The notes beneath the pieces were generated by a model, which had not been told where the DNA came from, did not search any database, and was given only the letters and a program-made list of their open reading frames with translations. A stretch of 62,141 nucleotides of DNA, counting the filler. It is 12 parts of 12 records of this genome, joined end to end, with 100 filler letters (N's around TTAATTAATTAA, not from the genome) between each part and the next. Parts side by side here need not be neighbours in the genome. Positions count along the whole stretch, not along the records: positions 47,130 to 54,987 come from SRR15195285_2262; 11 more parts are not named here. One strand, written 5' to 3'. Position 1 is the stretch's first letter; each line of letters opens with the position of its first letter. This document shows, piece after piece, positions 4,112 through 62,009 of this stretch. The position numbers were made by a program, and so were the translations under genes.

Positions 4112-4211
4112 NNNNNNNNNNNNNNNNNNNNNNNNNNNNNNNNNNNNNNNNNNNNTTAATTAATTAANNNNNNNNNNNNNNNNNNNNNNNNNNNNNNNNN
4201 NNNNNNNNNNN
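4112..4211. other. Artificial contig-join spacer (N44-TTAATTAATTAA-N44); first of 11
   Basis: Identical 100-bp spacers with six-frame stops at 4112-4211, 8070-8169, 11551-11650, 17411-17510, 21779-21878, 26980-27079, 31959-32058, 36293-36392, 42022-42121, 47030-47129 and 54988-55087. Confidence 0.98.
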
Positions 4212-8069: not shown

Positions 8070-8458
8070 NNNNNNNNNNNNNNNNNNNNNNNNNNNNNNN
8101 NNNNNNNNNNNNNTTAATTAATTAANNNNNNNNNNNNNNNNNNNNNNNNNNNNNNNNNNNNNNNNNNNNACGCGAACAACCCACGAGTGGGGGCGCGGCA
8201 CCCGGACGCATTACAAAAAAACCTGGTTGCCGACATGTGTTACGTGCTGGTTGCCGGCCCCCGATGGGTATCCTGCCAGTGGCGGTCCCGCGTTACGGAC
8301 CCTCGGATTGACATTCAGCGGCATTGAAAACGCTTCATCCCCCGTGCTTGGCTCCCACAATGCTTGGTGAGGAGTTGTGTGCCAGTGTGTGCATTCTGCC
8401 TTACCGTAAATCACATTGTGATGACCAGGGGAAAGCTAGAGCCGTCCCGCTAAGCGAG

Positions 8459-11423: not shown

Positions 11424-11928
11424 CGTTGAATTTCGTCATCCGAGCTCTTAAGAAATGGACCTGACCGTAAATTGGGAGCGACGGTCGTTGAACGGAGCTA
11501 CGGGACACAATTAGGTATCGTGGTGACGCCGGCAACGAGGCGGCATATGCNNNNNNNNNNNNNNNNNNNNNNNNNNNNNNNNNNNNNNNNNNNNTTAATT
11601 AATTAANNNNNNNNNNNNNNNNNNNNNNNNNNNNNNNNNNNNNNNNNNNNCGTGCGCTAGCTACATGGTTGCATGAAACCGATCCTGGTCGGCGCGAGAG
11701 CTATGCTGAGTTCGCAGCTTCTGAGGCTTTCCAAGCGATGCGCCCAAGAGAGCATGTCGATCTGAGGCAGGTGTGGACCGGCGGCAGTGGCGAGCCTAGC
11801 CGTCTATAATAGCACATGCATGATGGGTCTCGTCCCGTGCTATCTTGTTTCATTGGTAAGCTGTACAGCAATTTGCTGTCCATGTCGAGTGTTGCACTCA
11901 ACCTGCCTTTCCTAGGAGCGAGGCTGGT

Positions 11929-17233: not shown

Positions 17234-17674
17234 CTTAAATGGGCTGCTGCTGTCGGTGTTTCATCGCCGCCGGCACCGGTACGTATATGCACACGCGCCC
17301 TGGCGCGCATGGCGCATGCGCACTACGCCGGGTCCGACCGGGTATATATTATAATCTCGCGCGGCGCGCGCGCCCGGCGCCACACCCGCAGAATAAGTCG
17401 ATTTTGCGCCNNNNNNNNNNNNNNNNNNNNNNNNNNNNNNNNNNNNNNNNNNNNTTAATTAATTAANNNNNNNNNNNNNNNNNNNNNNNNNNNNNNNNNN
17501 NNNNNNNNNNTCAATTTTCGAATTTCAACCTGGGTACTAGATCTACTAGTAGTACCGGTACATGCATTTGAAGACCAGCTGCGCTGATTGTTGCTGGCCG
17601 GCATGCCGCATGGGGCCGGCGCCCTGGCGGCGGGTCTAGCTATATCTGCGTGCCAGTGTGCGGCGGGCGGCGGG

Positions 17675-21778: not shown

Positions 21779-21955
21779 NNNNNNNNNNNNNNNNNNNNNN
21801 NNNNNNNNNNNNNNNNNNNNNNTTAATTAATTAANNNNNNNNNNNNNNNNNNNNNNNNNNNNNNNNNNNNNNNNNNNNACGATTGACTGGGGCGAAAAAG
21901 CGGACTTTCCAGTGTGTGAAAGAGCGGGAGGGTAGTTGCCGGAGACCGGTGGGCG

Positions 21956-26810: not shown

Positions 26811-27079
26811 GACCTGGAGCCCAAGCTCCACCTTAGTTAGGCAAATTCTACCTCATACAATAAATATACTAGACCTAGCACGTGCATTACAGCTGTCCAT
26901 ACTAAGGGCCGCCCGCATTTTTTTTTAAAAAAATGGTGGAATGCAGTCCCGTCGGCACTGGAGTGGAGCGGCGGTGGAGNNNNNNNNNNNNNNNNNNNNN
27001 NNNNNNNNNNNNNNNNNNNNNNNTTAATTAATTAANNNNNNNNNNNNNNNNNNNNNNNNNNNNNNNNNNNNNNNNNNNN

Positions 27080-31817: not shown

Positions 31818-32352
31818 CTCCGCCGCCCGCCACCAGAGCAGCCCACCGCAGAGCACCCAGCAGCCGCCACGCAGCACCGCGACCGGAGCGCCACGCGCGG
31901 CCAGACAGCCAGCCAGACAGCCGTCAACGCACCCAGCAGCAGCAGCAGCAGCAGCAGCNNNNNNNNNNNNNNNNNNNNNNNNNNNNNNNNNNNNNNNNNN
32001 NNTTAATTAATTAANNNNNNNNNNNNNNNNNNNNNNNNNNNNNNNNNNNNNNNNNNNNGTCATGGGGGTTTCTGCCGGATCTGTCGATGGCTGGTCGGAC
32101 GGCAGGGGCCGCCAAAAAGCGTACTGCGTCGGCTCCGACGGCGCTAGAGAAGTCCAAGAACATGCCGGCGCCGGTCAAGCGCAGCAAGAATGGCTAGCCT
32201 AGTTGACACACCAAGCCGGAAAGCTCGAACTGCATGCTGTGGATACTTGAATCGATTTTAGTGTAGGTACTGCTCTAGGTGCTCACAGTCGCGCACACAC
32301 TTTCATGTTCGGGTATGAGATCATCCCTTGTATGTTGACTGTACACACTTCG

Positions 32353-33748: not shown

Positions 33749-35770
33749 ATGGAGCCGCCCGCTGAGGAGGGTCTACCGCCAGATCAGCAAACCGAGATCA
33801 CGCTTGAGCCACTGCGCGAACAAGAGGCGGCTCTTGGCGCCATGCGCATCCGCGCGCTGTACAAGCGTGCGGAGGAGTTAAAAGTCGATGATGCACTGCT
33901 CGATGCGGCCGAGGATGCGGACGACACTAAATCGGCGATCATTGACTTGATTCTCAGCGCCGAGGGGCGTGATCTGCATGCCGCCGGCCATGACTGCCCG
34001 GAGCCCGAGCTCGGCGGAAGCAGTCTCGCTCTGAGTTCTCCGGGGCGAGCGCCAGACACAAAGCAGGCGTTGGGGGGTCACAGCATCCACAAGAAGAACG
34101 CACGGGTGCAGGCGTCGCTCGAAGGACTGCCAAGCATCTTTGCTGACCTGGCAGGTGCTGATCAACTGCTTCGATTTTCAGAGTTCAAGGAGGCGCTGGT
34201 TGTGCGGCTGCAGATTTCTCTCAGCGAGCACGAGATTGAACGGATATGGCATCGCCTTGTCGGTGAGCGGATGGTACCTGTGCGCAACGGGGTCGACGTC
34301 CTCGAGGCAAAGCTCACGCTTTCCGAATTTTCAGAGGGCGTGCAGCACGTTTCCTTCTTGCGCTGTTGTGTGCCAAGCCTTCAAAAGGGTGGCACCGAGT
34401 TTGTGATCTCGTCAAACTACAACTACAGCACGTCGACGAACGATAATTACGGCGTGGCTACTTCTGAAGCAACGCTAGTAGGAGAGTATGTGTCGATCCG
34501 AGAGTCACGCGACTACTCATATCATACGCACTACACGCCAGAGCGACAGCGTTGGCAAGATTTCGCGATCAAAACTGTAGTGTCACGCACCGAGCGGCAG
34601 GGAAATCCGTGGATCGTATATACCTGTGGGCCGATGGGAGCAGGCAAGGGTTTTGCGCTGTCTTGGATGTCGCGCAACGGCTACTTTCCACTCGAGGACA
34701 TTGTTTGCATTGACCCGGATCACTTTAAGAAGATGATGCCGGAGTGGCCACACTACGTTTCCGCGGGGAGTGATGCAGGAAGCTTGTGCCACCGTGAGTC
34801 CGGCTTTCTGCAGGAGATCGCTCAGGAAGTTGCAATGAAAAATTCGCAGAACTGTTGGGTCGACGGCTCGTTGCGAGATTCTGCCTGGTTTGCGCAAGTG
34901 TTTAAGTCAATCCGCCGCCGGTTTCCACACTACAAGATTGCTATTTTCGAGGTAGGCGCACCTGAGGAGGTCGTGCGGGAGCGCATCAAGCAGCGCGCCG
35001 AGCGTGAAGGTCGGGACATTCCTGAGCACTTGATCGTTCAAAGCCTGGCCTCGGTCGCCGAATCGCTCGATGTGCTCACGCCACTAGTGGACTTTGTAGC
35101 ACGAATTGACAACTCTGGGTCGTCACCCAAACTTCGAGCCTATATCCGTGTCACCGCAGACGGCAACTGGAGCCATATCAAACGCCGGTTTGCGAGGCCC
35201 GAGAGGGCAGGGTCCTTCCCAGGGGCGTTGGCGCCGTTGCTGCTTCGTAGCGTACCAGAGCCGTCATCAATGCTGCTTTCCACCCAGGCAAGTGGCTCTG
35301 GTGACGGCTCCGCCCTGGTCCGGCCTCTTGAGTTTGACGTGCGCTGCTCTGCACTCGACTCTATTCGTGGCGCATTTCGTGAGGTGAAGATGATTCTATC
35401 GCCAGGGTCCGAGGTGACCCTTCAAGGTGCCGCCCGCTTGTCAGCGGGCATCCCGACGGAAGCCACTACATTTGCCTTTGCATACCCGGTGAAGATGGAT
35501 TGGGCTAAGGTACCAGACGTGACGAGGCACAGCTGTGAAAGCCTGGCGGCAATGGCGGGCAGCTTCGTTTACTTTAATGCCGTGGGTGCCGTTTGTGGGG
35601 TCAATGCAGTTGCGTCGTTCATGGATGATGATGATGATGATGGCCACAGTACTGGTGTGGGCTGGCAAGCACTTGTGCAGAGAGGTAAGAAGCCGGCCAC
35701 TATAAACCCAAAACTCGCTGCATTCAGAGACAGGCGCAACCGGCAACGTGGCAAATTGCTGTGTGACTGA
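33749..35770 (+). CDS. Zeta-toxin-like P-loop kinase domain protein with N-terminal helical and EF-hand-like modules; true 3' end probably displaced
   Basis: Walker A TCGPMGAGKG, IDPDHFK, HRESG, VDGSLRD and RAEREGRDIP. Sequence after the poly-Asp at 35624-35641 looks non-coding. Confidence 0.8.
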   Translation: MEPPAEEGLPPDQQTEITLEPLREQEAALGAMRIRALYKRAEELKVDDALLDAAEDADDTKSAIIDLILSAEGRDLHAAGHDCPEPELGGSSLALSSPGRAPDTKQALGGHSIHKKNARVQASLEGLPSIFADLAGADQLLRFSEFKEALVVRLQISLSEHEIERIWHRLVGERMVPVRNGVDVLEAKLTLSEFSEGVQHVSFLRCCVPSLQKGGTEFVISSNYNYSTSTNDNYGVATSEATLVGEYVSIRESRDYSYHTHYTPERQRWQDFAIKTVVSRTERQGNPWIVYTCGPMGAGKGFALSWMSRNGYFPLEDIVCIDPDHFKKMMPEWPHYVSAGSDAGSLCHRESGFLQEIAQEVAMKNSQNCWVDGSLRDSAWFAQVFKSIRRRFPHYKIAIFEVGAPEEVVRERIKQRAEREGRDIPEHLIVQSLASVAESLDVLTPLVDFVARIDNSGSSPKLRAYIRVTADGNWSHIKRRFARPERAGSFPGALAPLLLRSVPEPSSMLLSTQASGSGDGSALVRPLEFDVRCSALDSIRGAFREVKMILSPGSEVTLQGAARLSAGIPTEATTFAFAYPVKMDWAKVPDVTRHSCESLAAMAGSFVYFNAVGAVCGVNAVASFMDDDDDDGHSTGVGWQALVQRGKKPATINPKLAAFRDRRNRQRGKLLCD

Positions 35771-36292: not shown

Positions 36293-36670
36293 NNNNNNNN
36301 NNNNNNNNNNNNNNNNNNNNNNNNNNNNNNNNNNNNTTAATTAATTAANNNNNNNNNNNNNNNNNNNNNNNNNNNNNNNNNNNNNNNNNNNNTCTGGCGG
36401 CACTGCCACAGCCGAGGCACGCAGCGTCGGCCACGGCTGATGTGGTAGCTTCGCACACAGGTCTATGCGGCCCCGTACTCCCGATAGAGGGTGCTCGGAC
36501 GTATGGTTCCGCCATCAGCACGGGCGCTGTGGCCGTTTTTGTGCGTTTCAAGCAGCCCGATCTCGCGCGCCGCGCGGTTGCCGTACCGCGTACTGTGCGG
36601 GGGCTGAAGAACTGATCCTGATTCGCCTATTCAAGTTTGCATATTGATTATATACCATTCTGTGGGCCGC

Positions 36671-41952: not shown

Positions 41953-42139
41953 CCCAGCCCTGCCGCCGCCGCCTTCGCCGCCGCCGCCGCCGCTGCTGCT
42001 GCGGCTGCTGCTGCGGCTGCTNNNNNNNNNNNNNNNNNNNNNNNNNNNNNNNNNNNNNNNNNNNNTTAATTAATTAANNNNNNNNNNNNNNNNNNNNNNN
42101 NNNNNNNNNNNNNNNNNNNNNCCCCTTGCATCCCATGCC

Positions 42140-46914: not shown

Positions 46915-47304
46915 GCTGCCGACACCACGGCACCGGGCGTGCACCGCGCGACGGACGTGTCGCGCAACTTCAATCTTCATATTCGATTCATTGGCACGCG
47001 CTGCGAGATGTACGTCATTCAGGCGTGTGNNNNNNNNNNNNNNNNNNNNNNNNNNNNNNNNNNNNNNNNNNNNTTAATTAATTAANNNNNNNNNNNNNNN
47101 NNNNNNNNNNNNNNNNNNNNNNNNNNNNNATGAATGGGATTCAATACTCGGAATACACGCGCCTTTTGGTCACGATACCGACGAAAACGCTGGCTGCTGA
47201 GTATCATTTTCTGGCGAAACTCGTCTATTGAAGTGCAATGGTTCACATACTTGGTTCCGCAAGGACACCTTGAGGTCGCGAGTGGTATTGCTTCTGACAT
47301 GTGA

Positions 47305-50300
47305 TCAATCCAGCCTGACCTGCACCGGTGTTCGGGCATCTGCGTCTCGACGCGCTTTTTTCACCCGTATCTTTCGCTTGACGCGCAATGCCTTTGTCGC
47401 GAGAGCAGTTGTCTGTTTCAGTGACAGCGCACCGCTGTGCCCGAAATTACTCCTGTCATCGCTAGATTGCACCATGCCTGGCAATGCTGCCAGCGTAATG
47501 GACGACGTGGCTTTACCACGCTCAATGTCCTCCTGGTGACTGTCCAGCTCGCCGTTGTCTGCATCGTCTTCGGGTCCAAACCCAGCAACTCCCGCTGAAG
47601 CATTGGGCAAAAATGTTGCGTTGGTCATGGGATCATTAGGTTCCAGAACACTCATCCATCGGCTGTGTGCGCGAGTCAGCCCGCCGATTCCCAACATCCC
47701 GCGTAGCTCACCTAGATTGCGCGGTACAGTGCTTGCTGGCGTGATTCCTGACGGGACGACTGCAGCAATACCCGTCGTCGGAAAATCCATTGGAGCCGGC
47801 GGGATAACGTCTAGGGATAGGTGCAACGGCTCTTTCTTCCAACCAGACGCGTCTGCAACAAAAATTTCGACAGGCAACTCAGTGCCGAGTTCAGCGTTTT
47901 CAGCTGCCTGAATGGCAAGCTTTGTCGGTGCAGGTGGCACATCGGCGACAAACTGTAGCTTCAAGCGCACAAATCCAAACGGATGCACCCCTGTCGCACG
48001 CCGCCTCCTAATTTGCTTCTTCACGGAGCGGTCAGCAAAATTCTGCAGCTCACCCTTGCGTGAGTCGACCAACGGCCACTCCTTTGGTTTTGTCCAGCCA
48101 TGACCCCAGCCTGCATGGAACTCCTTCTCCAAGTCGATTTCAACCATACCAAGGAAATCATCGGCGCTTAGCTTGTCCCAGTCATAAACGGTAGCAGAGA
48201 GCACCAGTTGATCTGACGGCACGTCGTCGCCCAGCTCAAACTCGAAAATGGTTTGCTTCGACTCAGGTCCCTCACTTCGGTTGAATCGAGGGTTCAACGT
48301 CTGCAGCACAGTGTGGGTGCGCTGTGGCTTGGGATCGCCACCGACAGTCACCTCCACGAACGGATCTGATTGGCCATTGGCGTCCGCTGCAAGCAGCCCT
48401 CTGCATGTCAGCACAACAACCTGCAGCCTACCTGCAGGTCGGCGGGATGGCTCCTTGAAATCGATTTTCAACCGCATCGTCCCGTACGGACTGTCATCCC
48501 CAGCCTGTACACGTTTCTTGATCTGCTTTTTGATTGACTTGTCCTGGTCAAGTAATTTCTCTTCGTCAGTGAGAGCTCGTGTCCACTCCGCCTCCTCAGT
48601 CAGCCAGGACACACCCTCTCCTAGCTCCTCTATCAGGTCGATTGAAACCTCACCGATGAAGTCGTCGCTCAGCATGGACTTCATGCCGGGAACTACCACA
48701 TCCTCATCCAATACCTTGAGCTTGAGGCTGCGCAAGTCCTCAGTCGACACCTGACCTGGAGTCAGGAACCACTGGAAGCTCTCTTCAAACTTTGGATTTA
48801 GGGTTTTGGGTTGCACTCTCGTCTCCTGTTGCTCGAGATCGCCTAGGCAAGCAGTAATGTATGGATCCGACAGACCGTTGCGGTCTGCAGCAAGAAGGTT
48901 GCTGCACCCGTCGACGCGTATGGTGAGCACGCCTGGGCACGGCGGCGTAGGTGCAGGTGGTTGAGTTGGGTCTGTGAACCCCACTCGAATCGAAATGAAC
49001 CCAAGACCATCAAATCCATACACATCCGATTGTTCTTTTCCTTGGCGCTCCAGTATCTGACGCTGGGCATCTTTGTTCTTCTCGAGCTTGCCGTCCAAAT
49101 CGACCAGAGGCCGGTGCCAGAGCACTCCTCTTTGCTGGTCACGCCAGCTTTCACCCTCGCCAAGGATTGTAGTCAAGTCGACTTCGTAGCCGCCAAGGAA
49201 ATCGTCACCCACCAAGTCCTTGTCGAACACAGAGAGCCGCAGCTGTAAGTCCTCGACAGGCATTTGAGCTGGCAGATCCCACCAAACAGTCTCACGGAAG
49301 ACAGGATCCAGAGTCTTATCTCTGACGCCTGTAGTATAGGAGTAATGTCCACTACCTCCAAGTGTGACTGTGATGAACGGATCAGACAACCCGTTGCGAT
49401 CAGCGGCAATGAGTTTGCTACAACTCAATATGGTTATGCTCAGTTCGCCTGGGCATGGCGGGGAGTCTGGCAAGGACATGACAACCATATGTGAGCGAGC
49501 ACGCTTGTTTTGAACATGCTTGCGAGACACTTTGGCGTCAGGATCGATGCAAATCGACTCGTCGGCAGCCTCGTATTCGTGATGCTCGAGTTGACTAGAA
49601 TCCTGAGATTCATCTTTATGTGGTGTCACGAAGAAGTCTTCAACCAGCGCCTTGAACTCGTCTACAGCAATTGCAGTATCCCAGCCGTCTTCACTACTCG
49701 ACCAAAGATGTTTCAAAAAACCATGCACGACAGAATCAATCAGAGACAGACCAACTGACTCGCAACCCAAACGCAGCTCCTCCGCTGTCACCGACCCCGT
49801 CACTGCCTGTTGCGTGTAAGCACCATCACCTGCCACAACAGAGTCAAACAAAGTCTGGATCTTCCGAAGGCGAACCTCAGGATCCTCGTCGTCGTCCAGC
49901 TCCTCTTCTAGTTCTGACTCTTCAACCACAGTTTGCTCATGGCTTGTGGTGCCGATAGACTGACCTGCCGGAGATTCAAGTCCCAAGCGCCGCGTTTCCT
50001 CCTTGGACAACAGGGTGATTCCGCGAGGGGCCTCTAATGCTGTTCGCATGCCTGCTGGAGCATTCTCGATGACAATGAAGGACCAACTGCCTCGAGTGAC
50101 AGCAAGCTTCCGTGTCTTTAGTCGGATCGGCGGTGGTTGATCACCAACTGTCCCGTGTTGCCTAAGTACAACCCAGTCTGTTTTTGACCATGCCCGAGTA
50201 CGGCTGGTGCTACTTAGGTCAACAAAAACACGACCTATCTCGTCGTCTTCGTCCTGGTCTTCATCCATGCAACGCAGCTCCAGGCACCCAGGCATCTGAG

Positions 50301-53300
50301 GTACCCAAAACTGCATCTCATATCCGTCATCTCCCCACTGTGGAGCTGTACCACCTTCATGCAGAGTCTCAGTTCTGTCTGCGAAGTCTGACACTGCTTC
50401 CGAGCCTCCGGCATCAGAGTGTAGAACCTCTAACCCATCTGGATCCTTCTCCTCGCCTGCGACATCTTCAGGAGATCGCATATGCACCAGCACGTTAACG
50501 TACGGGTCATTTTCACCCACCGCGTCCATCTGTCGGAGCCCTTTGCCCTTGAGTACAGTCACACGAAGCAAGCAGTTCGTCAGTTTGTCACTAGTTTGCC
50601 ATTCATCTGTGTCGTTCGCTTGCAGGCCTTTCCTCGCTCCAGGATCCCACAGTACAATAACCTGCAGAGCACCGGCACTGCGTTCTCCATTATGGTATTC
50701 ATCCAGGTCTTGGCCATCTCCGGCAATCAGGTCGTCATCACTGAGCAAGTAAGCATCGCTGATTTGCTTAGTTTTGTTGCGCCGCTGTCGCATGCAGCAG
50801 CACAAACACAGCAGACAACAACAGCAAACGCCCCCAGCACCGATACCCCCGAGTATCATGAGATCAAATTTCTCTATCACGGCATCTTGCTCGATAGGAG
50901 CAACAAACGTGATCGCAGCTGAGGTATCGACAACCATCTCACTGGTGTTGACACCGATGTTTTCCAACACACCGTTGATGAAGTCAGGATTTTCAAGTTG
51001 TGTGGCGAGCTCATTTGGATCCGACGCCGGGCCAAGTATAAGCTCAAACTGCACCTGGGTAGAGTAAGTAGGAGCATCAAATCTCGGGGGAATCGCGGTG
51101 ACAACGCGACCAACCAATTCTAGACTTTCAAGCTCACCGCTATCCAGACCCTGTGCTACCAGCGTCTCCGTGATGAAAGTGTCACGCGCGGCGGCCGCAA
51201 AAGATACGGCAAAAAGTGCTGCGAATCCTGTGTCACCATCGGACTCAAATACCAGGGAGATGTCTGACGAGGATACGAGAGTTACGTCAAACACGACTCC
51301 TGTGGTGGATACTGCTTGAAGTCGTCGCCTTGCCTCACCAATAGAGTTGAGGGTGACATTGTCGATATTGACCCTTCCTGGTTCAGCAACACCTTTTTTC
51401 ACCATGTATCGCTTCGCTCTGCATGCAAGTGAATCGCAGCTGTAATGCTCCGAAGATTGTCGGAAAAACGGTGAGCTCGGAAGTGTGACCATGGTGTTCA
51501 CTTGTTGTTCATACAGTGACAGGACAGCGACAGTCCCTGTGCCAGCTTGTTTGCTTAGCTCTTCAAGCATACCTGTCACGTTGACAGACGGTCCCGTAAA
51601 GGAGGCAACTGTAACAATGCGCGGAGCTGGCGGGGGAGGAGGCGGTGCTGGCGGCTCTGGCTCGGGCTCTGGCAGCGGTTCGGGCTCTGGGATCGGTTCA
51701 GGCTCAGGCTCGGGTGCTGGCTCTGGCTCTGGCGCCGGCTCAGGCTCTGGTTCCGGGACGTATATCAAGTCAGCCCAATCAAAGGATCCCGATCCGGAAT
51801 CATCAAACAGCTCTGGCCACAGGCATGAACCATCATCCACGTTGGCTGTAGGGTTGAAGTTGATGGCTGTAGAGTTCATGCAGCCCTGCCGAATGCGGAT
51901 ACAGGAATACCCGTCGCCCATGTAACCATCGTTGCAATCGCAAATGTGGGACTCGGCAGTCAGATAGCACGATGCAACCGGGCTACAGTCATTTTCTGCT
52001 GCGCTACATAGAGCATATTCACACGACCCATCATCAGTGTTCGCGTCTGGATCGTAATTCGCCGCGCGAGGATCTATACAAGCGTAAACTCGTTCAATCT
52101 CGCACGTCTCACCAATGTACTCCGCAGTACATGTACACTCGAATTGATCCAATGGCAAGGACGATAGTGTTGAATCGCTGCAGGCTCCATGGTGCATGCA
52201 TGGGGTGCTGAGGCACTCGTCAACGTCGAGTTCACACTGTACTCCTTCAAGACCCGGCGGGCATATGCACATGAACTCGTCGAAATCACTCGCAGTGGAG
52301 CAGCCCGCAGGGCATGCCGCTGAAAAGTCGGTCTCTTCTGACAGGTCGCAAACTGGGGTGTATGCCAGCGTGTGCGTACAGCCGATGGGACACTCGTCCG
52401 ATCCGTCAGCAACGTTGGCAAAGTCACAAGTCGGCGTATGTTCGCTCACATAATCACAACCGGTTGCACATGAACCATCTTGCTGGAAACTGCAATTTGG
52501 TTGAACATCCGGCACTTCCGCCGTATAAACGCAGCCCGCTGGGCAAGACCTGGCAAGCCTGTCAGGTCCCATGGAAAATGCAGTTGCACAGTCAGGTTGT
52601 GGGACTGCAGAACCTACCGGAACACACCCAACCAGGCTCACATTCAACACTGCGGAGAAATTGGTCCAGCATCGGTCAATTGCTGCAACCATTCCGACTG
52701 CGCCGCAAACGAGATCAAACGGATCAGCACAGTGCGCTATATCTGGTTCTGACGCTGCTGCTGGTTCCAAAGGTAGGACCACAGATCCAACAGGAACACA
52801 AGTGCTGCGGTTACCGGCGCTATTCAAGCACTGCTCAGCTGAAGCAACCATCCCAACCGCGCCACACACACCATCAAATGCATCTGTGCAGGGCGGATAG
52901 TAGGGCTCCGGCTCCGGCTCTGGCTTCGGCTCCGGCTCTGGGTTCGGGGGATCAGCGCAGGCAAAGCACGAAGCTGGGCACACAGACGAGATCAGCGTGC
53001 CAACCGGCAACTCTGGGATGAAAATATGGAGATCTGATTGACAATCTGCGACAGTGAGAAGCAGAGGGCATGGCAGTGGCCCTAGAAGGCCGTCTGGGTC
53101 ATCCAGACATCCTGGCGGCTCTGGCTCTGGCTCTGGCTCGGGTGGCAAATCTGGCGCGGTGCAGGTAGCTGCAGAGCCAACAACCAGTGTCGCGGTGCCT
53201 GTGCACGAGGCTGCAACTGGATCGGCTGTACCAATGCATGCAGCTGGGACGAAGTTGGCTGCACCCCAGCACAGCACCCCAACGGTTCCAGGCGCGAGCT

Positions 53301-54987
53301 CAGAACCAACACAATCACCAGCAACACAGGGATCACTGGTGCATTCGTCCACATCAATCCCACAGTTTCCACCAAGTGTGACAGCACATTCAGCAGAATA
53401 TTGGCTGATGTAATCGTATTCACATACGCCATTGGCAAACCCAGCGGCACAGACGCATTGGTATGCGTGAGCCGGGATGCTACTGTTGGTGCCAGACTCC
53501 AGACAAGTGGCACCGTTTTCACATGGGCTGCTGGCGCACTCGTCAATGTCAATGTCGCAGTTGCCAGTAGAGACACTGTAATTCCCGCTTTGTAGACAGA
53601 GCTCAGCATATTCGGGCATTGCTTCGTAATCGCAAATGCCATTCGCGAACCCCTCCTGACAAGTGCACCAGTAGGTGCCGAAGCCTGTGGAAACCGCACC
53701 GTGCGACTCGAGACAGCTCGCCCCGTTGTCACAGGGGCTACTAGAACATTCATCTACATCGATATCGCAGTTTCCGACCTCGTGACCAATAAGTCTCCAA
53801 GTGCTTTCTGCATCGTCAAGACTCTCTAGCACAGTGCACTCGGTAGCGTATTCGGTAATATAGTCGTACGCGCATGCGCCATTGGCAAATCCAGCAGCAC
53901 AGCTGCACTGATAAGCATGTGCAGACACAGTGCTGTTGTCGCTGGCAGACTCAATGCATGTTGCTCCATTCTCGCATGGACTGCTAGCGCACTCGTAGAT
54001 ATCGAGATTGCAAAGAATTCCAGCCCATCCGTCTGGGCATACACATTTGTATCTATCGATTCCGACACTGGTCCCGTGTGATCTCGGAATGCACACGCCA
54101 GTTGTGGTGCACTGCTCCATCCCAATTGCGGAGCACGGGCTTGTCGTCGAGCAAGCTGCAGAGTCCCGGCAGATTCCGCCATTCAAGCATGGGAAGCTGA
54201 GACATTCGTCACTGTCTTGATCACAATTGAGACCTTCATATCCAGCCATGCAGTCACAGGCATAAGAGTCCAGCACCGTCGCCGGCATGACAGGCCGACA
54301 TGACGCACCGCATGAGATCATTCCGACAAATGCACAGGGCTCTTCCTGCGTGGGTCCCTGACCGCTGCACAGACTGGACTCGTAGCATGCCGCGCCGTGG
54401 GCACATGGACTGCTGGCACATTCATTCGTGTCGGCATCACAATTTCCGTGACCTGTGCTATCTAAGACAGAGCACTCTGCTGTGTAAACAGGCGCCATTG
54501 AAACACGGTCACTCCACAATTCACCGACTGCAATCGGAACAAGTGGGTCGCAAACGCCGTTTGCAAACCCGGCAAAGCATGTACAGCGGTACGCGTTGCT
54601 AGGCACTGGCGACAGCTCGTCAAGATGAACGCTGGTTGAATCGGTGCAGGTCGCTAGATTTTCGCACGGCATGCTTGCGCACTCATTTATGTCAATATCA
54701 CAATTGCCAAGACCTGGACCAGCGGTAGAGTCCATAGCACTGCATTCAGATTCATACTGCGCGATGACACCTTCTGCACATACACCGTTTGCAAAACCGG
54801 GAGCACAGCTGCAGCGGTATGCGTGTAAAGGGATATCTGAGTTGCTTGTGGAGTCTGTGCAACTACTGCCGTGCATGCATGGGTTGCTTGCGCACTCGTC
54901 AATATCGACATCACAGTTGCCGTGCAGCGATTGAATGCACAAGCCACTGTCCGGAACGCAGACCTGGCCGCATGACATGAACCCGAC
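47305..54987 (-). CDS. Giant single-pass membrane protein: Ca-binding EGF repeats, TM helix, four C2 domains (partial)
   Basis: 2557-aa ORF open from the contig edge. Repeated CDxDIDECASxPCxNGAxC, two AxN(Y/F)xPxANxDDGSC repeats, (PE)n linkers, TM LMILGGIGAGGVCCCCLLCLCCCM-RQRR, and C2 starts MDAVGENDPYV, ADRNGLSDPF, ADRNGLSDPY and ADANGQSDPF. Probably spliced onward at ~47320. Confidence 0.92.
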   Translation of the reverse strand, partial: VGFMSCGQVCVPDSGLCIQSLHGNCDVDIDECASNPCMHGSSCTDSTSNSDIPLHAYRCSCAPGFANGVCAEGVIAQYESECSAMDSTAGPGLGNCDIDINECASMPCENLATCTDSTSVHLDELSPVPSNAYRCTCFAGFANGVCDPLVPIAVGELWSDRVSMAPVYTAECSVLDSTGHGNCDADTNECASSPCAHGAACYESSLCSGQGPTQEEPCAFVGMISCGASCRPVMPATVLDSYACDCMAGYEGLNCDQDSDECLSFPCLNGGICRDSAACSTTSPCSAIGMEQCTTTGVCIPRSHGTSVGIDRYKCVCPDGWAGILCNLDIYECASSPCENGATCIESASDNSTVSAHAYQCSCAAGFANGACAYDYITEYATECTVLESLDDAESTWRLIGHEVGNCDIDVDECSSSPCDNGASCLESHGAVSTGFGTYWCTCQEGFANGICDYEAMPEYAELCLQSGNYSVSTGNCDIDIDECASSPCENGATCLESGTNSSIPAHAYQCVCAAGFANGVCEYDYISQYSAECAVTLGGNCGIDVDECTSDPCVAGDCVGSELAPGTVGVLCWGAANFVPAACIGTADPVAASCTGTATLVVGSAATCTAPDLPPEPEPEPEPPGCLDDPDGLLGPLPCPLLLTVADCQSDLHIFIPELPVGTLISSVCPASCFACADPPNPEPEPKPEPEPEPYYPPCTDAFDGVCGAVGMVASAEQCLNSAGNRSTCVPVGSVVLPLEPAAASEPDIAHCADPFDLVCGAVGMVAAIDRCWTNFSAVLNVSLVGCVPVGSAVPQPDCATAFSMGPDRLARSCPAGCVYTAEVPDVQPNCSFQQDGSCATGCDYVSEHTPTCDFANVADGSDECPIGCTHTLAYTPVCDLSEETDFSAACPAGCSTASDFDEFMCICPPGLEGVQCELDVDECLSTPCMHHGACSDSTLSSLPLDQFECTCTAEYIGETCEIERVYACIDPRAANYDPDANTDDGSCEYALCSAAENDCSPVASCYLTAESHICDCNDGYMGDGYSCIRIRQGCMNSTAINFNPTANVDDGSCLWPELFDDSGSGSFDWADLIYVPEPEPEPAPEPEPAPEPEPEPIPEPEPLPEPEPEPPAPPPPPPAPRIVTVASFTGPSVNVTGMLEELSKQAGTGTVAVLSLYEQQVNTMVTLPSSPFFRQSSEHYSCDSLACRAKRYMVKKGVAEPGRVNIDNVTLNSIGEARRRLQAVSTTGVVFDVTLVSSSDISLVFESDGDTGFAALFAVSFAAAARDTFITETLVAQGLDSGELESLELVGRVVTAIPPRFDAPTYSTQVQFELILGPASDPNELATQLENPDFINGVLENIGVNTSEMVVDTSAAITFVAPIEQDAVIEKFDLMILGGIGAGGVCCCCLLCLCCCMRQRRNKTKQISDAYLLSDDDLIAGDGQDLDEYHNGERSAGALQVIVLWDPGARKGLQANDTDEWQTSDKLTNCLLRVTVLKGKGLRQMDAVGENDPYVNVLVHMRSPEDVAGEEKDPDGLEVLHSDAGGSEAVSDFADRTETLHEGGTAPQWGDDGYEMQFWVPQMPGCLELRCMDEDQDEDDEIGRVFVDLSSTSRTRAWSKTDWVVLRQHGTVGDQPPPIRLKTRKLAVTRGSWSFIVIENAPAGMRTALEAPRGITLLSKEETRRLGLESPAGQSIGTTSHEQTVVEESELEEELDDDEDPEVRLRKIQTLFDSVVAGDGAYTQQAVTGSVTAEELRLGCESVGLSLIDSVVHGFLKHLWSSSEDGWDTAIAVDEFKALVEDFFVTPHKDESQDSSQLEHHEYEAADESICIDPDAKVSRKHVQNKRARSHMVVMSLPDSPPCPGELSITILSCSKLIAADRNGLSDPFITVTLGGSGHYSYTTGVRDKTLDPVFRETVWWDLPAQMPVEDLQLRLSVFDKDLVGDDFLGGYEVDLTTILGEGESWRDQQRGVLWHRPLVDLDGKLEKNKDAQRQILERQGKEQSDVYGFDGLGFISIRVGFTDPTQPPAPTPPCPGVLTIRVDGCSNLLAADRNGLSDPYITACLGDLEQQETRVQPKTLNPKFEESFQWFLTPGQVSTEDLRSLKLKVLDEDVVVPGMKSMLSDDFIGEVSIDLIEELGEGVSWLTEEAEWTRALTDEEKLLDQDKSIKKQIKKRVQAGDDSPYGTMRLKIDFKEPSRRPAGRLQVVVLTCRGLLAADANGQSDPFVEVTVGGDPKPQRTHTVLQTLNPRFNRSEGPESKQTIFEFELGDDVPSDQLVLSATVYDWDKLSADDFLGMVEIDLEKEFHAGWGHGWTKPKEWPLVDSRKGELQNFADRSVKKQIRRRRATGVHPFGFVRLKLQFVADVPPAPTKLAIQAAENAELGTELPVEIFVADASGWKKEPLHLSLDVIPPAPMDFPTTGIAAVVPSGITPASTVPRNLGELRGMLGIGGLTRAHSRWMSVLEPNDPMTNATFLPNASAGVAGFGPEDDADNGELDSHQEDIERGKATSSITLAALPGMVQSSDDRSNFGHSGALSLKQTTALATKALRVKRKIRVKKARRDADARTPVQVRLD

Positions 54988-55420
54988 NNNNNNNNNNNNN
55001 NNNNNNNNNNNNNNNNNNNNNNNNNNNNNNNTTAATTAATTAANNNNNNNNNNNNNNNNNNNNNNNNNNNNNNNNNNNNNNNNNNNNTGTACTTGTAATA
55101 AACTGTAATCTGTAATCAGATAATGAACGATTTCGTCCAAGGACTTTTTGCAAAAAAAGACAGGCGCGAGCTGCCACACCAACACGCAACAGGTGAGTGA
55201 GCACTGCAGCTGTAGGTGCTCACTCCTCACTGGCTGGAACCGGCCGCCCGCTGCACCGGCGAGCAGGTGCCGGCGGAAACGCGCGCTCGTCCTCGCGTTG
55301 GTGGCGCCGCGCCGCGTCATCGTTGGACCATCGCTCCATCAGGCAGGCGCAGTGGATCTAGTATCGATCAGCAGGGTGTGGTGCTACTGGTCTGACGCGT
55401 CTACGCTGCCCTGAGGGCCA

Positions 55421-60180: not shown

Positions 60181-62009
60181 TCACCCCTGTGATGGCTGTG
60201 GTGGGCAGATGCCGGCCGAACCTGCGCAGGGTGCATGCGAGCAGAGGTCGCAGTTGAGCGTGGGGGGTGGCGACTTGCCGCTGGGAGGCTCCGCCACCCA
60301 ACCTGCCGGTGTGCCTGGGGGGCCAACAAAGGCAGTGCTGCCGTTCTGCACGTAATACTTATTTTCGCCAGACTTCGCGATGCGCCACTTGCCATCACGA
60401 GCCGACGCGTAGATCTGGTGCGCTGCGTCTTTGTAGAAGAGCTCCTGCCGGCCTTGCACTCGCGACCATGCCGTGCAGCCGCTCGTCTGCACCCGCGTGT
60501 ACAGCCCGTTGCAGGCCGCGCATCCAGCCCCGCTGACGGTGACGGAGGCGGCATTGGCAGCATGGCACGCGGCAGGCACGTTGGGAAGAGGCACCTGCGG
60601 CGGCTCGTAGTGGCAGCGCTTCTGCTTAGCCGGTGGCACCAGATCGCGAGGGTGTCTCCCTTCGTATACGATCACCAGCGCACCAGTGCTGAGATCACGC
60701 GTTGCGTGCGGTGCGTGCGCAAAAGCTGGCACGAGCACTGATGCGTTGGGAGCGGGCACGCCAGACTGCAAATCGTAGGGGTCGCCACCTGCAATTGGAG
60801 CTAGCTGATACGGGCCTTCAGCGTCGGCTGAGACAGCGTGCACAATCTGCGAATTCGTGATGTAGTCGTTGATCGTGCAATGGTTGGTCATCTCGACGGT
60901 GAACACATGGTACTTCTGATCGGTCTTGTCCCAAAATGGGTTACCACCCCACCCGTTGAAGCCCTGGCGACGGTAGCCGCCACTCTTCTTGGCAGGCAGC
61001 AGCGCAAGCACCCCGCAGGACTCACCGGACCACTCGATGTCGCAGTGACACTTCCCATCCTGGCAGGAGCCATTGAGGTTGCAGGACTCGTCGCTCTCAC
61101 AGGCGCCGCCTCCAGCAGGCTCATTGCAGGTTGGACCAGTCCAGCCAGATGCACACTCGGAAGTGCTTCGTACAGGCTGCGACTGCATCCATGAGTCGGG
61201 GCCGTTTGGCTCGACGACAGACGTGAACAGCACACGCGGGGTGCTCCAGTTTGTGTCCAGCAGCAATCCTGGCCGCTCCCGCCGGCCCATCACCGTCCAC
61301 GTGCCGTCGCTCCAGCTGATGTTCTTGGTGTACGCAGGAATCTCGGAGAACGTCCAGTGCGTGCCGTCACGTGAAAAGCTGTGCCCACCGTTGTAGTATC
61401 GGTTGTGATCTCCATCTTGCCAGTGGTGGATCATGTGCAAGTTGCCACGCTTGTCACCTGATGCCATGGCGCAGGAGTGTGATGCAAGTGTGAGGATTGC
61501 GGTGTGCAGCCAGTGGGATCACGCACGCCACATGAAGGGATCCTCCGCATTGTTCATCGGAAACGGCTGCTTGTTATTATCGATCGACTTGTAGCCACTG
61601 GCCCAGCTGGGCGAGGCGGCCACCCAAGGATGCTCAGGCCCGGAGCAAGTTCGCCCGGCGAGGAGCGAACTGCCGTTCGGCAGGATGAGCAGCGTCGGAT
61701 TGTCAATCCCATAGCCCGAGTACCATTCCTTCTTCGCACTGGGTGCGGACGGCCTGTTGCGCGACCGCGTACGGTGAGCTGGAGACGGACAACGGAGACG
61801 ATACCGGAACGTGCATTCTGTGGCGACGCACGGTGCGTGAACGGAACTCACTCGTAGATAATGGTAGGTCCATGCCACGGCCCAGCCGCTGCGCCACTTG
61901 GCGACGAAAGCGCCATGACCCCGGTGCACTCCGGGTTCGTCGGCTGCGCCTTGACCTGCTGGGCCATTAGCGCGAACACAGCAGCACTGTGCATCATCAT
62001 CTGCATCAT
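60181..62009 (-). CDS. GH43-like beta-propeller protein with internal EGF-like module; 5' end uncertain
   Basis: Introns 61754-61851 and 61458-61526 give GPW..DNPTLL..EDPFMW-RDKRGNLH..GGHSFSRDG..RRERP, then CNLNGSC..CHCD..WSGESC, WGG, NSQIVHAVS..GPY and FAHAP. Confidence 0.8.

Follow-up and report, generated by a model that had tools for sequence, protein, structure and literature searches.

A single gene joins a Notch-like EGF array to four C2 domains across one predicted transmembrane helix

Can a long array of extracellular EGF repeats and a cytoplasmic array of C2 domains be carried by one and the same membrane protein? Membrane-anchored multi-C2 proteins (synaptotagmins, ferlins, MCTPs and E-Syts) face the cytoplasm and expose almost nothing across the membrane, and the tails known from EGF-repeat receptors are signalling or adaptor tails. 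The question is raised by a gene, here called the EGF/C2 gene, whose open reading frame (ORF) occupies positions 47305..54978 on the minus strand of the 62,141-nucleotide stretch of DNA analysed here (the window). A first-pass annotation, made from the letters of the window, had read in this region an uninterrupted frame of more than 2,550 residues, with about ten Ca-binding EGF repeats interleaved with a FANGxC spacer, Cys-rich modules, PE stalks and an RRRLQ site, followed by one transmembrane helix with a poly-Cys cluster, four C2 domains with acidic Ca-ligand loops and an EF-like helix pair. It had held that no known family combines an EGF ectodomain with multiple C2 domains, and had proposed a candidate new receptor or tether class. 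We find a single frame of 2557 codons, encoding 2557 amino acids (aa) from the first ATG, and a stop. All features of the gene described below lie on the minus strand.

The EGF/C2 frame is a genuine single gene, and the join between its two halves is not an assembly artefact, because it is borne out by a collinear orthologue, by homologue fragments and by bridging contigs from two studies. The orthologue, P0002, was found with aa 1380-2400 among 5.8 billion proteins. It is an ENA protein of 1564 aa from a 5116-nt contig, with C2, PARP-like and EGF_3 matches in Pfam, and it aligns to aa 959-2504 in a single high-scoring segment pair with 69.7% identity over 1580 columns, which comprises EGF_3, the stalk, the juxtamembrane domain, the helix and the four C2 domains. 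P0002 is thus collinear with our protein from the last EGF block to the tail, which means that a second organism keeps the same order. A HMMER search with aa 1140-2330 against 1.84 billion representative sequences gave 2192 matches at E <= 1e-3, only a handful of which reach the family-specific part. The homologue fragments are P0012 (81% identity, 650 aa), P0013 (38%, 882 aa; query 16-540), P0019 (57%, 223 aa), P0031 (65%, 136 aa), P0037 (37%, 257 aa) and P0063 (85% over a 61-residue stretch). P0013 has no starting Met and begins inside the juxtamembrane domain, from where it continues through the helix, the post-membrane motif, the first C2 domain and one more C2.

The same DNA recurs in other sequencing runs. 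Among the runs listed, the EGF/C2 stretch is present in 19 runs of 15 studies, mostly seawater metagenomes; X11, labelled as a rhizosphere metagenome, has 0.49 of the stretch's words, from which no habitat is deduced. Contigs of four runs were aligned to the stretch. Record 5 of X1 covers 50081-50950 with 1 mismatch (aa ~1343-1633) and record 29 of X2 covers 50762-51849 (aa ~1044-1406); the two contigs, from DNA runs of different studies, tile aa ~1044-1633 across the stalk and the helix. No contig joint was reported at the helix for the four aligned runs; those reported fall only in the PE repeats, amid unrelated contigs. A chimeric join across the transmembrane region, which the first-pass annotation had named as one way in which its proposal could fail, is therefore contradicted by contigs that bridge the helix. 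Metatranscriptome contigs of two studies (X14 and X15; 8 pieces each among those listed) lie on both halves with 0-4 mismatches per piece, and the gene is probably transcribed.

The outer part opens with an array of eight Notch/Delta-like calcium-binding EGF (cbEGF) modules at 53314..54915 (aa 22-555). Pfam places seven EGF stretches in aa 1-560 (E 2.2e-29), and two EGF and one EGF_3 in aa 901-1150, about ten EGF modules in total. By regular-expression counts, the signature [DN]x[DN][EDQ]C opens eight modules, and FANGxC occurs in five copies, at aa 62, 138, 364, 444 and 514; five of the eight N-terminal cbEGF modules end in FANGxC, which is then followed by a short two-Cys spacer. Compared with PDB sequences, the EGF part matches the EGFs of Delta-like 1 and Notch1 (E 3e-21 to 1e-11). 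As a separate observation, CxSx[PA]C between Cys1 and Cys2 is kept in nine EGF modules (53314-54915 and 52203-52220; aa 29-551 and 922-927), and Cxxxx[ST]C between Cys2 and Cys3 in five. We take these motifs to be the consensus sites for O-glucose and O-fucose on Notch EGFs; if they are, the host organism may possess the matching glycosyltransferases.

The cbEGF array is followed by a Cys-rich region (52270..53313, aa 556-903) with internally repeated Cys motifs and two short PE linkers (aa 612-622 and 678-693), where Pfam finds no family other than a low-complexity Trypan_PARP match. A second EGF block (51820..52269, aa 904-1053) contains, by Pfam, an EGF end, one cbEGF (aa 918-959) and an EGF_3 module (aa 991-1026, E 3e-9). 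On either side of the EGF_3 module, at 52015-52080 and 51820-51882 (aa 967-988 and 1033-1053), lies a copy of a ~22-aa motif that closes with DDGSC and has no Pfam family. A (PE)n/poly-Pro stalk at 51622..51756 (aa 1075-1119) forms the third PE/Pro linker of the protein; it gives a low-complexity Trypan_PARP match and a repeat pile-up of unrelated contigs. The DNA of the PE repeats (51584-51845 and 52894-53155) draws such contigs at hundreds to tens of thousands of depth units in all four runs aligned, which suggests that repeats coding for (PE)n abound in these marine communities.

Between the stalk and the membrane lies a family-specific juxtamembrane domain (50866..51621, aa 1120-1371), which is conserved in the homologues, with identities of 71% to P0002, 34% to P0013 and 34% to P0037. 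It contains the RRRLQ site (51316-51330, aa 1217-1221), and the basic triplet of this RRR[LM]Q site, ~150 aa before the helix, is kept in P0013. For aa 1135-1372, Pfam gives no match, a PDB sequence search gives matches at E > 1 only, and the best ESM Atlas score is 0.88, to unnamed clusters. A SEA cluster scores 0.76 in ESM Atlas, below the useful range.

Hydropathy locates a single transmembrane helix at 50791..50865 (aa 1372-1396). The sole strong hydrophobic 19-mer is found at aa 1375, with a Kyte-Doolittle value of 2.27 against 1.76 for the runner-up. Eight Cys at aa 1385-1395, the last 11 residues of the helix, form a cluster in its predicted cytoplasmic half, and a basic stretch follows. 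Cysteine density is 6-14 per 100 aa ahead of the stalk and falls to 0-3 beyond the helix, whereas Lys and Arg together rise from 0-3 to 6-15 per 100 aa. From this asymmetry of Cys and charge, the single helix and the basic stretch behind it, we infer a type I (N-out) topology. The basic stop-transfer stretch leads into a conserved acidic motif with [DE]xxL[IV] (50641..50790, aa 1397-1446; from alignments). This post-membrane motif shows many invariant columns in 4/4 aligned sequences and is kept by all family sequences that include this part, with [DE]xxL[IV] in 5/5; few parts of the protein are as well conserved as the region near the helix. The [DE]xxL[IV] element presumably resembles the acidic dileucine sorting signals.

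Four C2 domains follow. C2-1 (50143..50574, aa 1469-1612) is split by a ~45-aa insertion and matches Pfam C2 in two stretches (E 1.6e-9); scanned alone it reaches 38.3 bits against a cut-off of 22, and its homologue fragment P0019 carries PF00168. C2-2 (48976..49452, aa 1843-2001; Pfam C2, E 3.6e-18) has a helical insert before its last strand and matches synaptotagmins in the PDB. C2-3 (48457..48936, aa 2015-2174; E 8.1e-18) is also delimited by alignment, and C2-4 (47947..48432, aa 2183-2344; E 3.8e-19) finds its best single PDB stretch in an otoferlin C2. The Pfam envelopes of these three strong domains are aa 1844-1938, 2016-2117 and 2183-2288. In the alignment, each of the four C2 domains retains all five acidic Ca-ligand positions: two Asp of loop 1 (D..D) and three of loop 3 (DxD...D). 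By sequence, the solved structures nearest to the C2 part are otoferlin (E 2.1e-21), synaptotagmins 3, 1 and 7, and the PKC C2. Most multi-C2 homologues lack the motif [KR][KR]Q[ILVM] of the helical insert, which is found in 6/149 proteins and 7/390 C2 units.

Between C2-1 and C2-2, a possible EF-hand-like helix pair with degenerate loops is located at 49627..49881 (aa 1700-1784). Pfam, with aa 1531-1800 scanned, gives no match. An AlphaFold2 model from a 3-row alignment shows the order helix, loop with short strand, helix, twice, at low confidence (mean pLDDT 57, with the blocks over residues 1-90 averaging 56-72). Foldseek with this model returned nothing at E <= 0.001, the best match being apo calbindin D9k at E 0.26; nine of its top ten rows, all at E > 0.001, bear the titles of calbindin D9k, S100 or calmodulin entries, and the remaining row is a squid myosin S1 (chain C). 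ESM Atlas adds EF-hand clusters at 0.87-0.88 as weak leads. We read the loops as non-canonical at positions 1 and 3. We regard the segment, as a lead from a low-confidence model, as EF-like and probably Ca-insensitive. The protein ends in a tail, aa 2345-2557 (47308..47946), without a Pfam family, which closes with a polybasic cluster (aa ~2529-2545) conserved in P0012.

The layout read in the first pass thus holds from the EGF repeats and their spacer through the Cys-rich modules, PE/Pro linkers, RRRLQ site and Cys-bearing helix to the four C2 domains with their ligand positions. Its EF-like helix pair stands as a lead: the low-confidence model has two helix-loop-helix units, but there is no Pfam match.

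Which of the known systems does this architecture belong to? It shares with the synaptotagmins (Syt1 and Syt7) a predicted N-out single pass, a Cys cluster where the helix meets the cytoplasm, a linker behind it, and C2 domains on the cytoplasmic side with full acidic ligand sets. The available text of PMC2823689 and PMC5987875 describes the synaptotagmin architecture as a lumenal N-terminus, helix, linker and cytoplasmic C2 domains, and that of PMC5987875 describes the Cys at the helix as palmitoylated. Synaptotagmins, however, have a short lumenal N-terminus and exactly C2A-C2B, whereas here the helix comes at aa 1372-1396, behind an outer part of more than 1370 aa, and is followed by four C2 domains. 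An insertion splits one of these, three contain a helical insert, and a possible EF-like pair comes on top; the acidic ligands of C2 loops 1 and 3 are a synaptotagmin feature that our protein shares by sequence.

With Notch, Delta, Crumbs and EYS the protein has in common tandem cbEGF modules, a predicted single-pass type I layout and a basic juxtamembrane site. It differs from them in longer C3-C4 loops, in the FANGxC spacers between modules and in the C2-array tail. Pfam scans of the EGF/C2 protein contain no LNR, NOD/HD, ANK, laminin-G or DSL; PF00066, PF06816 and PF07684 are absent from the whole protein and from aa 1135-1372 even at E <= 5, and no Ank family is found in aa 1151-2557. Of the Notch features, the tandem EGF modules are thus present, whereas the LNR with NOD/heterodimerisation region and the cytoplasmic RAM/ankyrin part are not.

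The third likeness is to ferlins, MCTPs and E-Syts/tricalbins, which share a membrane-anchored array of three or more Ca-type C2 domains; otoferlin has the best whole-sequence PDB score. Ferlins are tail-anchored and carry FerI, FerA, FerB and DysF, MCTPs have C-terminal hairpin helices, and E-Syts have an N-terminal hairpin and an SMP domain. To our knowledge, no ferlin, MCTP or E-Syt/tricalbin family has a large ectodomain. In the EGF/C2 protein the helix lies N-terminal to the C2 domains, Pfam scans find no Fer or DysF families, no PF17047 (SMP) and no PF08372 (PRT_C), and no hydrophobic segment follows aa 1396. Since defining features or domains of each of these groups were looked for and not found, the protein is a member of none of Notch, synaptotagmin, ferlin, MCTP and E-Syt. 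By analogy, its membrane-proximal logic is most like that of synaptotagmin and its outside most like that of Notch or Crumbs, a combination that appears to be rare.

EGF and C2 domains do meet elsewhere in one polypeptide, as in perforin. In the Notch ligands (Delta, Serrate and Jagged), too, EGF modules occur with a phospholipid-binding C2 domain, according to the available text of PMC8490980. In both cases a single C2 is extracellular, on the EGF side, whereas here four C2 domains are predicted on the opposite side of the helix. No named protein with the EGF-helix-4xC2 layout was found in the protein searches made, and a search of titles and abstracts, Picozoa with EGF included, found no paper on an EGF ectodomain with cytoplasmic C2 domains. 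The earlier statement that no family combines the two kinds of domain is accordingly narrowed to the cytoplasmic, multi-C2 form, since EGF with an extracellular C2 is known.

The relatives of the two halves place the protein within a family. With the ectodomain (aa 1-1140) as query, 705 proteins were retrieved at E <= 1e-3. The best matches are unnamed marine metagenome proteins and proteins of EukProt COSAG02, SAG11 and SAG22, which align to roughly half of the query with 37-49% identity; after them come animal Crumbs, EYS and Notch proteins, at 25-30% identity. Among the 120 matches listed, a FANGxC-like motif occurs at least once in 29/35 non-animal homologues, with up to 11 copies. Our protein, with five copies, shares the combination of cbEGF, FANGxC and two-Cys spacer by which we recognise the family. 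Its members comprise P0161, P0164, P0190 and P0191, as well as P0165 and P0170, which are EukProt proteins of Picozoa sp. COSAG02 and SAG11.

These marine-protist proteins have the same unit of cbEGF and spacer, and several are type I with a single helix behind a Cys-rich part, but their tails differ, being Arm/UBA, SAP, caspase (also with TRP-like helices) or none. P0164 carries Arm and UBA, and P0190 and P0192 carry Arm and SAP, each behind a single helix after the Cys-rich part. Caspase domains are found in P0182 and P0191; in P0191 the caspase stands behind a single helix and is followed by TRP-like helices. A caspase-tailed EGF receptor is as unusual as a C2-tailed one. Other ectodomain relatives carry EF-hand, REJ, LNR and TIG/LTD domains in precomputed Pfam annotation.

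Among these relatives, the four-C2 tail is shared by P0002 only. Pfam C2 occurs in two of the 120 ectodomain matches listed, P0002 and P0167, and EGF patterns in P0002 only among 159 proteins from the C2-side searches. P0167 was rejected as a second case of the layout, as it has only a partial C2 match (aa 5-60), ahead of a hydrophobic segment and the EGFs. A search with aa 1140-1840 found three ENA fragments and no named protein. In JGI metagenome contigs, patterns for the post-membrane motif and C2-1 matched 598 stretches, none of which was confirmed; no longer contig was obtained and the N-terminus was not recovered. In the searches made, the core formed by juxtamembrane domain, helix, post-membrane motif and C2-1 occurs in metagenome fragments only, with no named organism. 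As far as these sequences tell, the EGF-helix-4xC2 form is a small, lineage-restricted family.

Paralogues with the same type of ectodomain bear other tails, and we therefore place the EGF/C2 protein in a modular family as one of its tail variants. It has the look of a tail-swap product within this large modular family of marine-protist EGF receptors and is not a stand-alone class. The new receptor class proposed at first is thereby qualified: the architecture is rare and lies outside Notch, synaptotagmin, ferlin, MCTP and E-Syt, but the ectodomain comes from a large tail-swapping family.

The gene comes from an uncultured marine protist, and its nearest named ectodomain relatives are Picozoa single-cell genomes, a link to Picozoa that we take as a lead. 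The available text of PMC10268365 gives 'Picozoa sp. COSAG02' as a single-cell genome, and that of the preprint of Schön et al. lists SAG11 among the Picozoa single-cell genomes (SAGs); SAG22 is absent from the latter text.

The window itself is composite. Eleven linkers of 100 nt each, of the form N44-TTAATTAATTAA-N44, split it into 12 artificially joined contigs of ~3.4-7.9 kb; the linkers lie at 4112-4211, 8070-8169, 11551-11650, 17411-17510, 21779-21878, 26980-27079, 31959-32058, 36293-36392, 42022-42121, 47030-47129 and 54988-55087. ORFs on different contigs are therefore not shown as neighbours of the EGF/C2 gene. The contig that bears it (47130..54987), edged by the last two linkers, encodes nothing else. 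The frame has no stop upstream to 54987, where N44-TTAATTAATTAA-N44 begins; being open at the contig edge, the gene is 5'-truncated, and a signal peptide, if any, is thus not to be expected in the sequence. Other contigs of the window encode clearly eukaryotic proteins, namely a kinesin, a mitochondrial carrier, an anoctamin and a choline-transporter-like protein. On one eukaryotic contig, an ORF of 673 aa at 33749-35770 (plus strand) carries Zeta_toxin/AAA_33 kinase-like domains (Pfam, E 4.3e-20). A further ORF of 428 aa at 60181-61467 (minus strand) has a weak Teneurin-EGF match (E 5.3e-8), under the curated cut-off, and did not pass a filter for motif and Cys density.

How might such a protein work? 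Its domain content suggests a receptor for capture or adhesion that is regulated by Ca and has a synaptotagmin-like tail. The first-pass annotation had proposed an adhesion or prey-capture receptor linked to Ca-dependent tethering or exo/endocytosis, which likewise would follow from the domains only. The ectodomain would form an extended, Ca-stiffened rod on the PE/Pro stalk and bind particles, colloids or other surfaces, and RRR[LM]Q could mark a place of dibasic processing. Acyl chains would be attached to the Cys cluster, as they are in synaptotagmins. When Ca2+ rises locally, the four C2 domains would dock onto the inner leaflet by way of its acidic phospholipids; this docking would gather receptor and cargo at one site and so couple the cargo to bending of the membrane there and uptake, or to fusion. 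Taken as a whole, a single protist gene for a type I Ca-EGF receptor, whose Ca-regulated C2 tail couples cargo to uptake or fusion, is the explanation that we favour by a little better than even odds.

Several observations weigh against this explanation. The function is read from domain content alone, and the topology from composition. The contig lacks the N-terminus and, with it, any signal peptide. The Cys cluster is not kept across the family, with none in P0013 and a few Cys in P0037, and the AlphaFold2 model of the juxtamembrane domain is unusable (mean pLDDT 38.8). The Picozoa assignment is drawn only from paralogous EGF matches of ~40% identity. Transcript evidence, which the first-pass annotation had suggested as a check, is available from two studies on both halves, but contigs from RNA libraries can hold DNA. 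Strain variants in the ORF comprise 15 synonymous and 21 non-synonymous changes among the 36 variants listed, with 29 further variants in existence, and they give no more than a modest hint of constraint.

Among the alternatives, the one that survives best is that the protein is a vesicle-resident, self-delivering adhesin, with a lumenal EGF array and its own C2 array triggering fusion, followed by display at the surface. The conserved [DE]xxL[IV] could be a sorting signal. The layout would be that of synaptotagmin, which the available text of PMC2823689 and PMC5987875 gives as a lumenal N-terminus, a helix with Cys cluster, a linker and cytoplasmic Ca-type C2 domains, but there are four C2 domains here and not a C2A-C2B pair. 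Sequence alone cannot separate such an adhesin from a surface receptor, and we consider it a minority possibility, with roughly a fifth of our belief.

A static tether or scaffold in the manner of E-Syt, tricalbin or MCTP, whose C2 array holds a second membrane or the cortex while the EGF array serves as structural coat or matrix, is less probable still. Multi-C2 arrays are typical of tethers, the nearest long homologues of the C2 part have 4-9 C2 motifs and mostly lack a strong hydrophobic segment, and the polybasic C-terminus is conserved in P0012. Against these points, neither SMP nor PRT_C appears in any Pfam scan, and the complete Ca-ligand sets argue for regulated over constitutive binding.

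We think it very unlikely that the protein undergoes Notch-like regulated proteolysis, with maturation cleavage at RRR, ligand-dependent shedding and an intramembrane cleavage that frees the C2/polybasic tail as a signal. The EGF modules are Notch/Delta-like, RRR[LM]Q stands ~150 aa before the helix also in P0013, which is 34-38% identical, and the polybasic cluster at the C-terminus could conceivably serve as a nuclear signal. However, LNR, NOD/HD and ANK are missing from the Pfam results, the juxtamembrane domain has no Pfam or PDB match, and C2 domains are modules that bind membranes and do not act as transcription factors. An assembly chimera, or two adjacent genes in one frame, is largely refuted: the contig is short and of metagenome type, the window is concatenated and the PE repeats in bins 51584-51845 and 52894-53155 draw many unrelated contigs and spurious joints, but P0002 keeps the same continuous order across the helix, P0013 at 38% identity keeps the juxtamembrane domain, helix, C2-1 and a second C2, and contigs of two studies bridge a helix whose surroundings are among the best conserved.

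The Ca-regulated capture receptor is thus the reading that we carry forward. A more far-reaching form of it, which we offer tentatively and think improbable as it stands, is a receptor logic of a picoeukaryote not recognised before: an extracellular Ca-EGF array would be hard-wired through one acylated helix to a synaptotagmin-like Ca2+/lipid machine of four C2 domains, so that a single molecule both binds the ligand and senses Ca for uptake or fusion nearby. It would belong to a plug-and-play family with C2, caspase, Arm/UBA and SAP tails. Picozoa are reported, in the available text of PMC3608682, to feed on colloids < 150 nm by endocytosis. If the organism is a picozoan, colloid feeding would be a plausible setting for the receptor.

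The swapped tails suggest extensive domain shuffling in the surface receptors of marine protists. This fits the enrichment of EGF-like domains in heterotrophic marine protists described in the available text of a preprint (10.64898/2026.04.17.719054). The joining of EGF and C2 arrays would demonstrate that one polypeptide can both capture a ligand and carry out Ca-triggered membrane remodelling, and would offer a concrete molecular candidate for particle uptake by tiny uncultured heterotrophs. If such hard-wired EGF/C2 receptor logic is true, it would represent an independent invention of complex transmembrane signalling outside animals.

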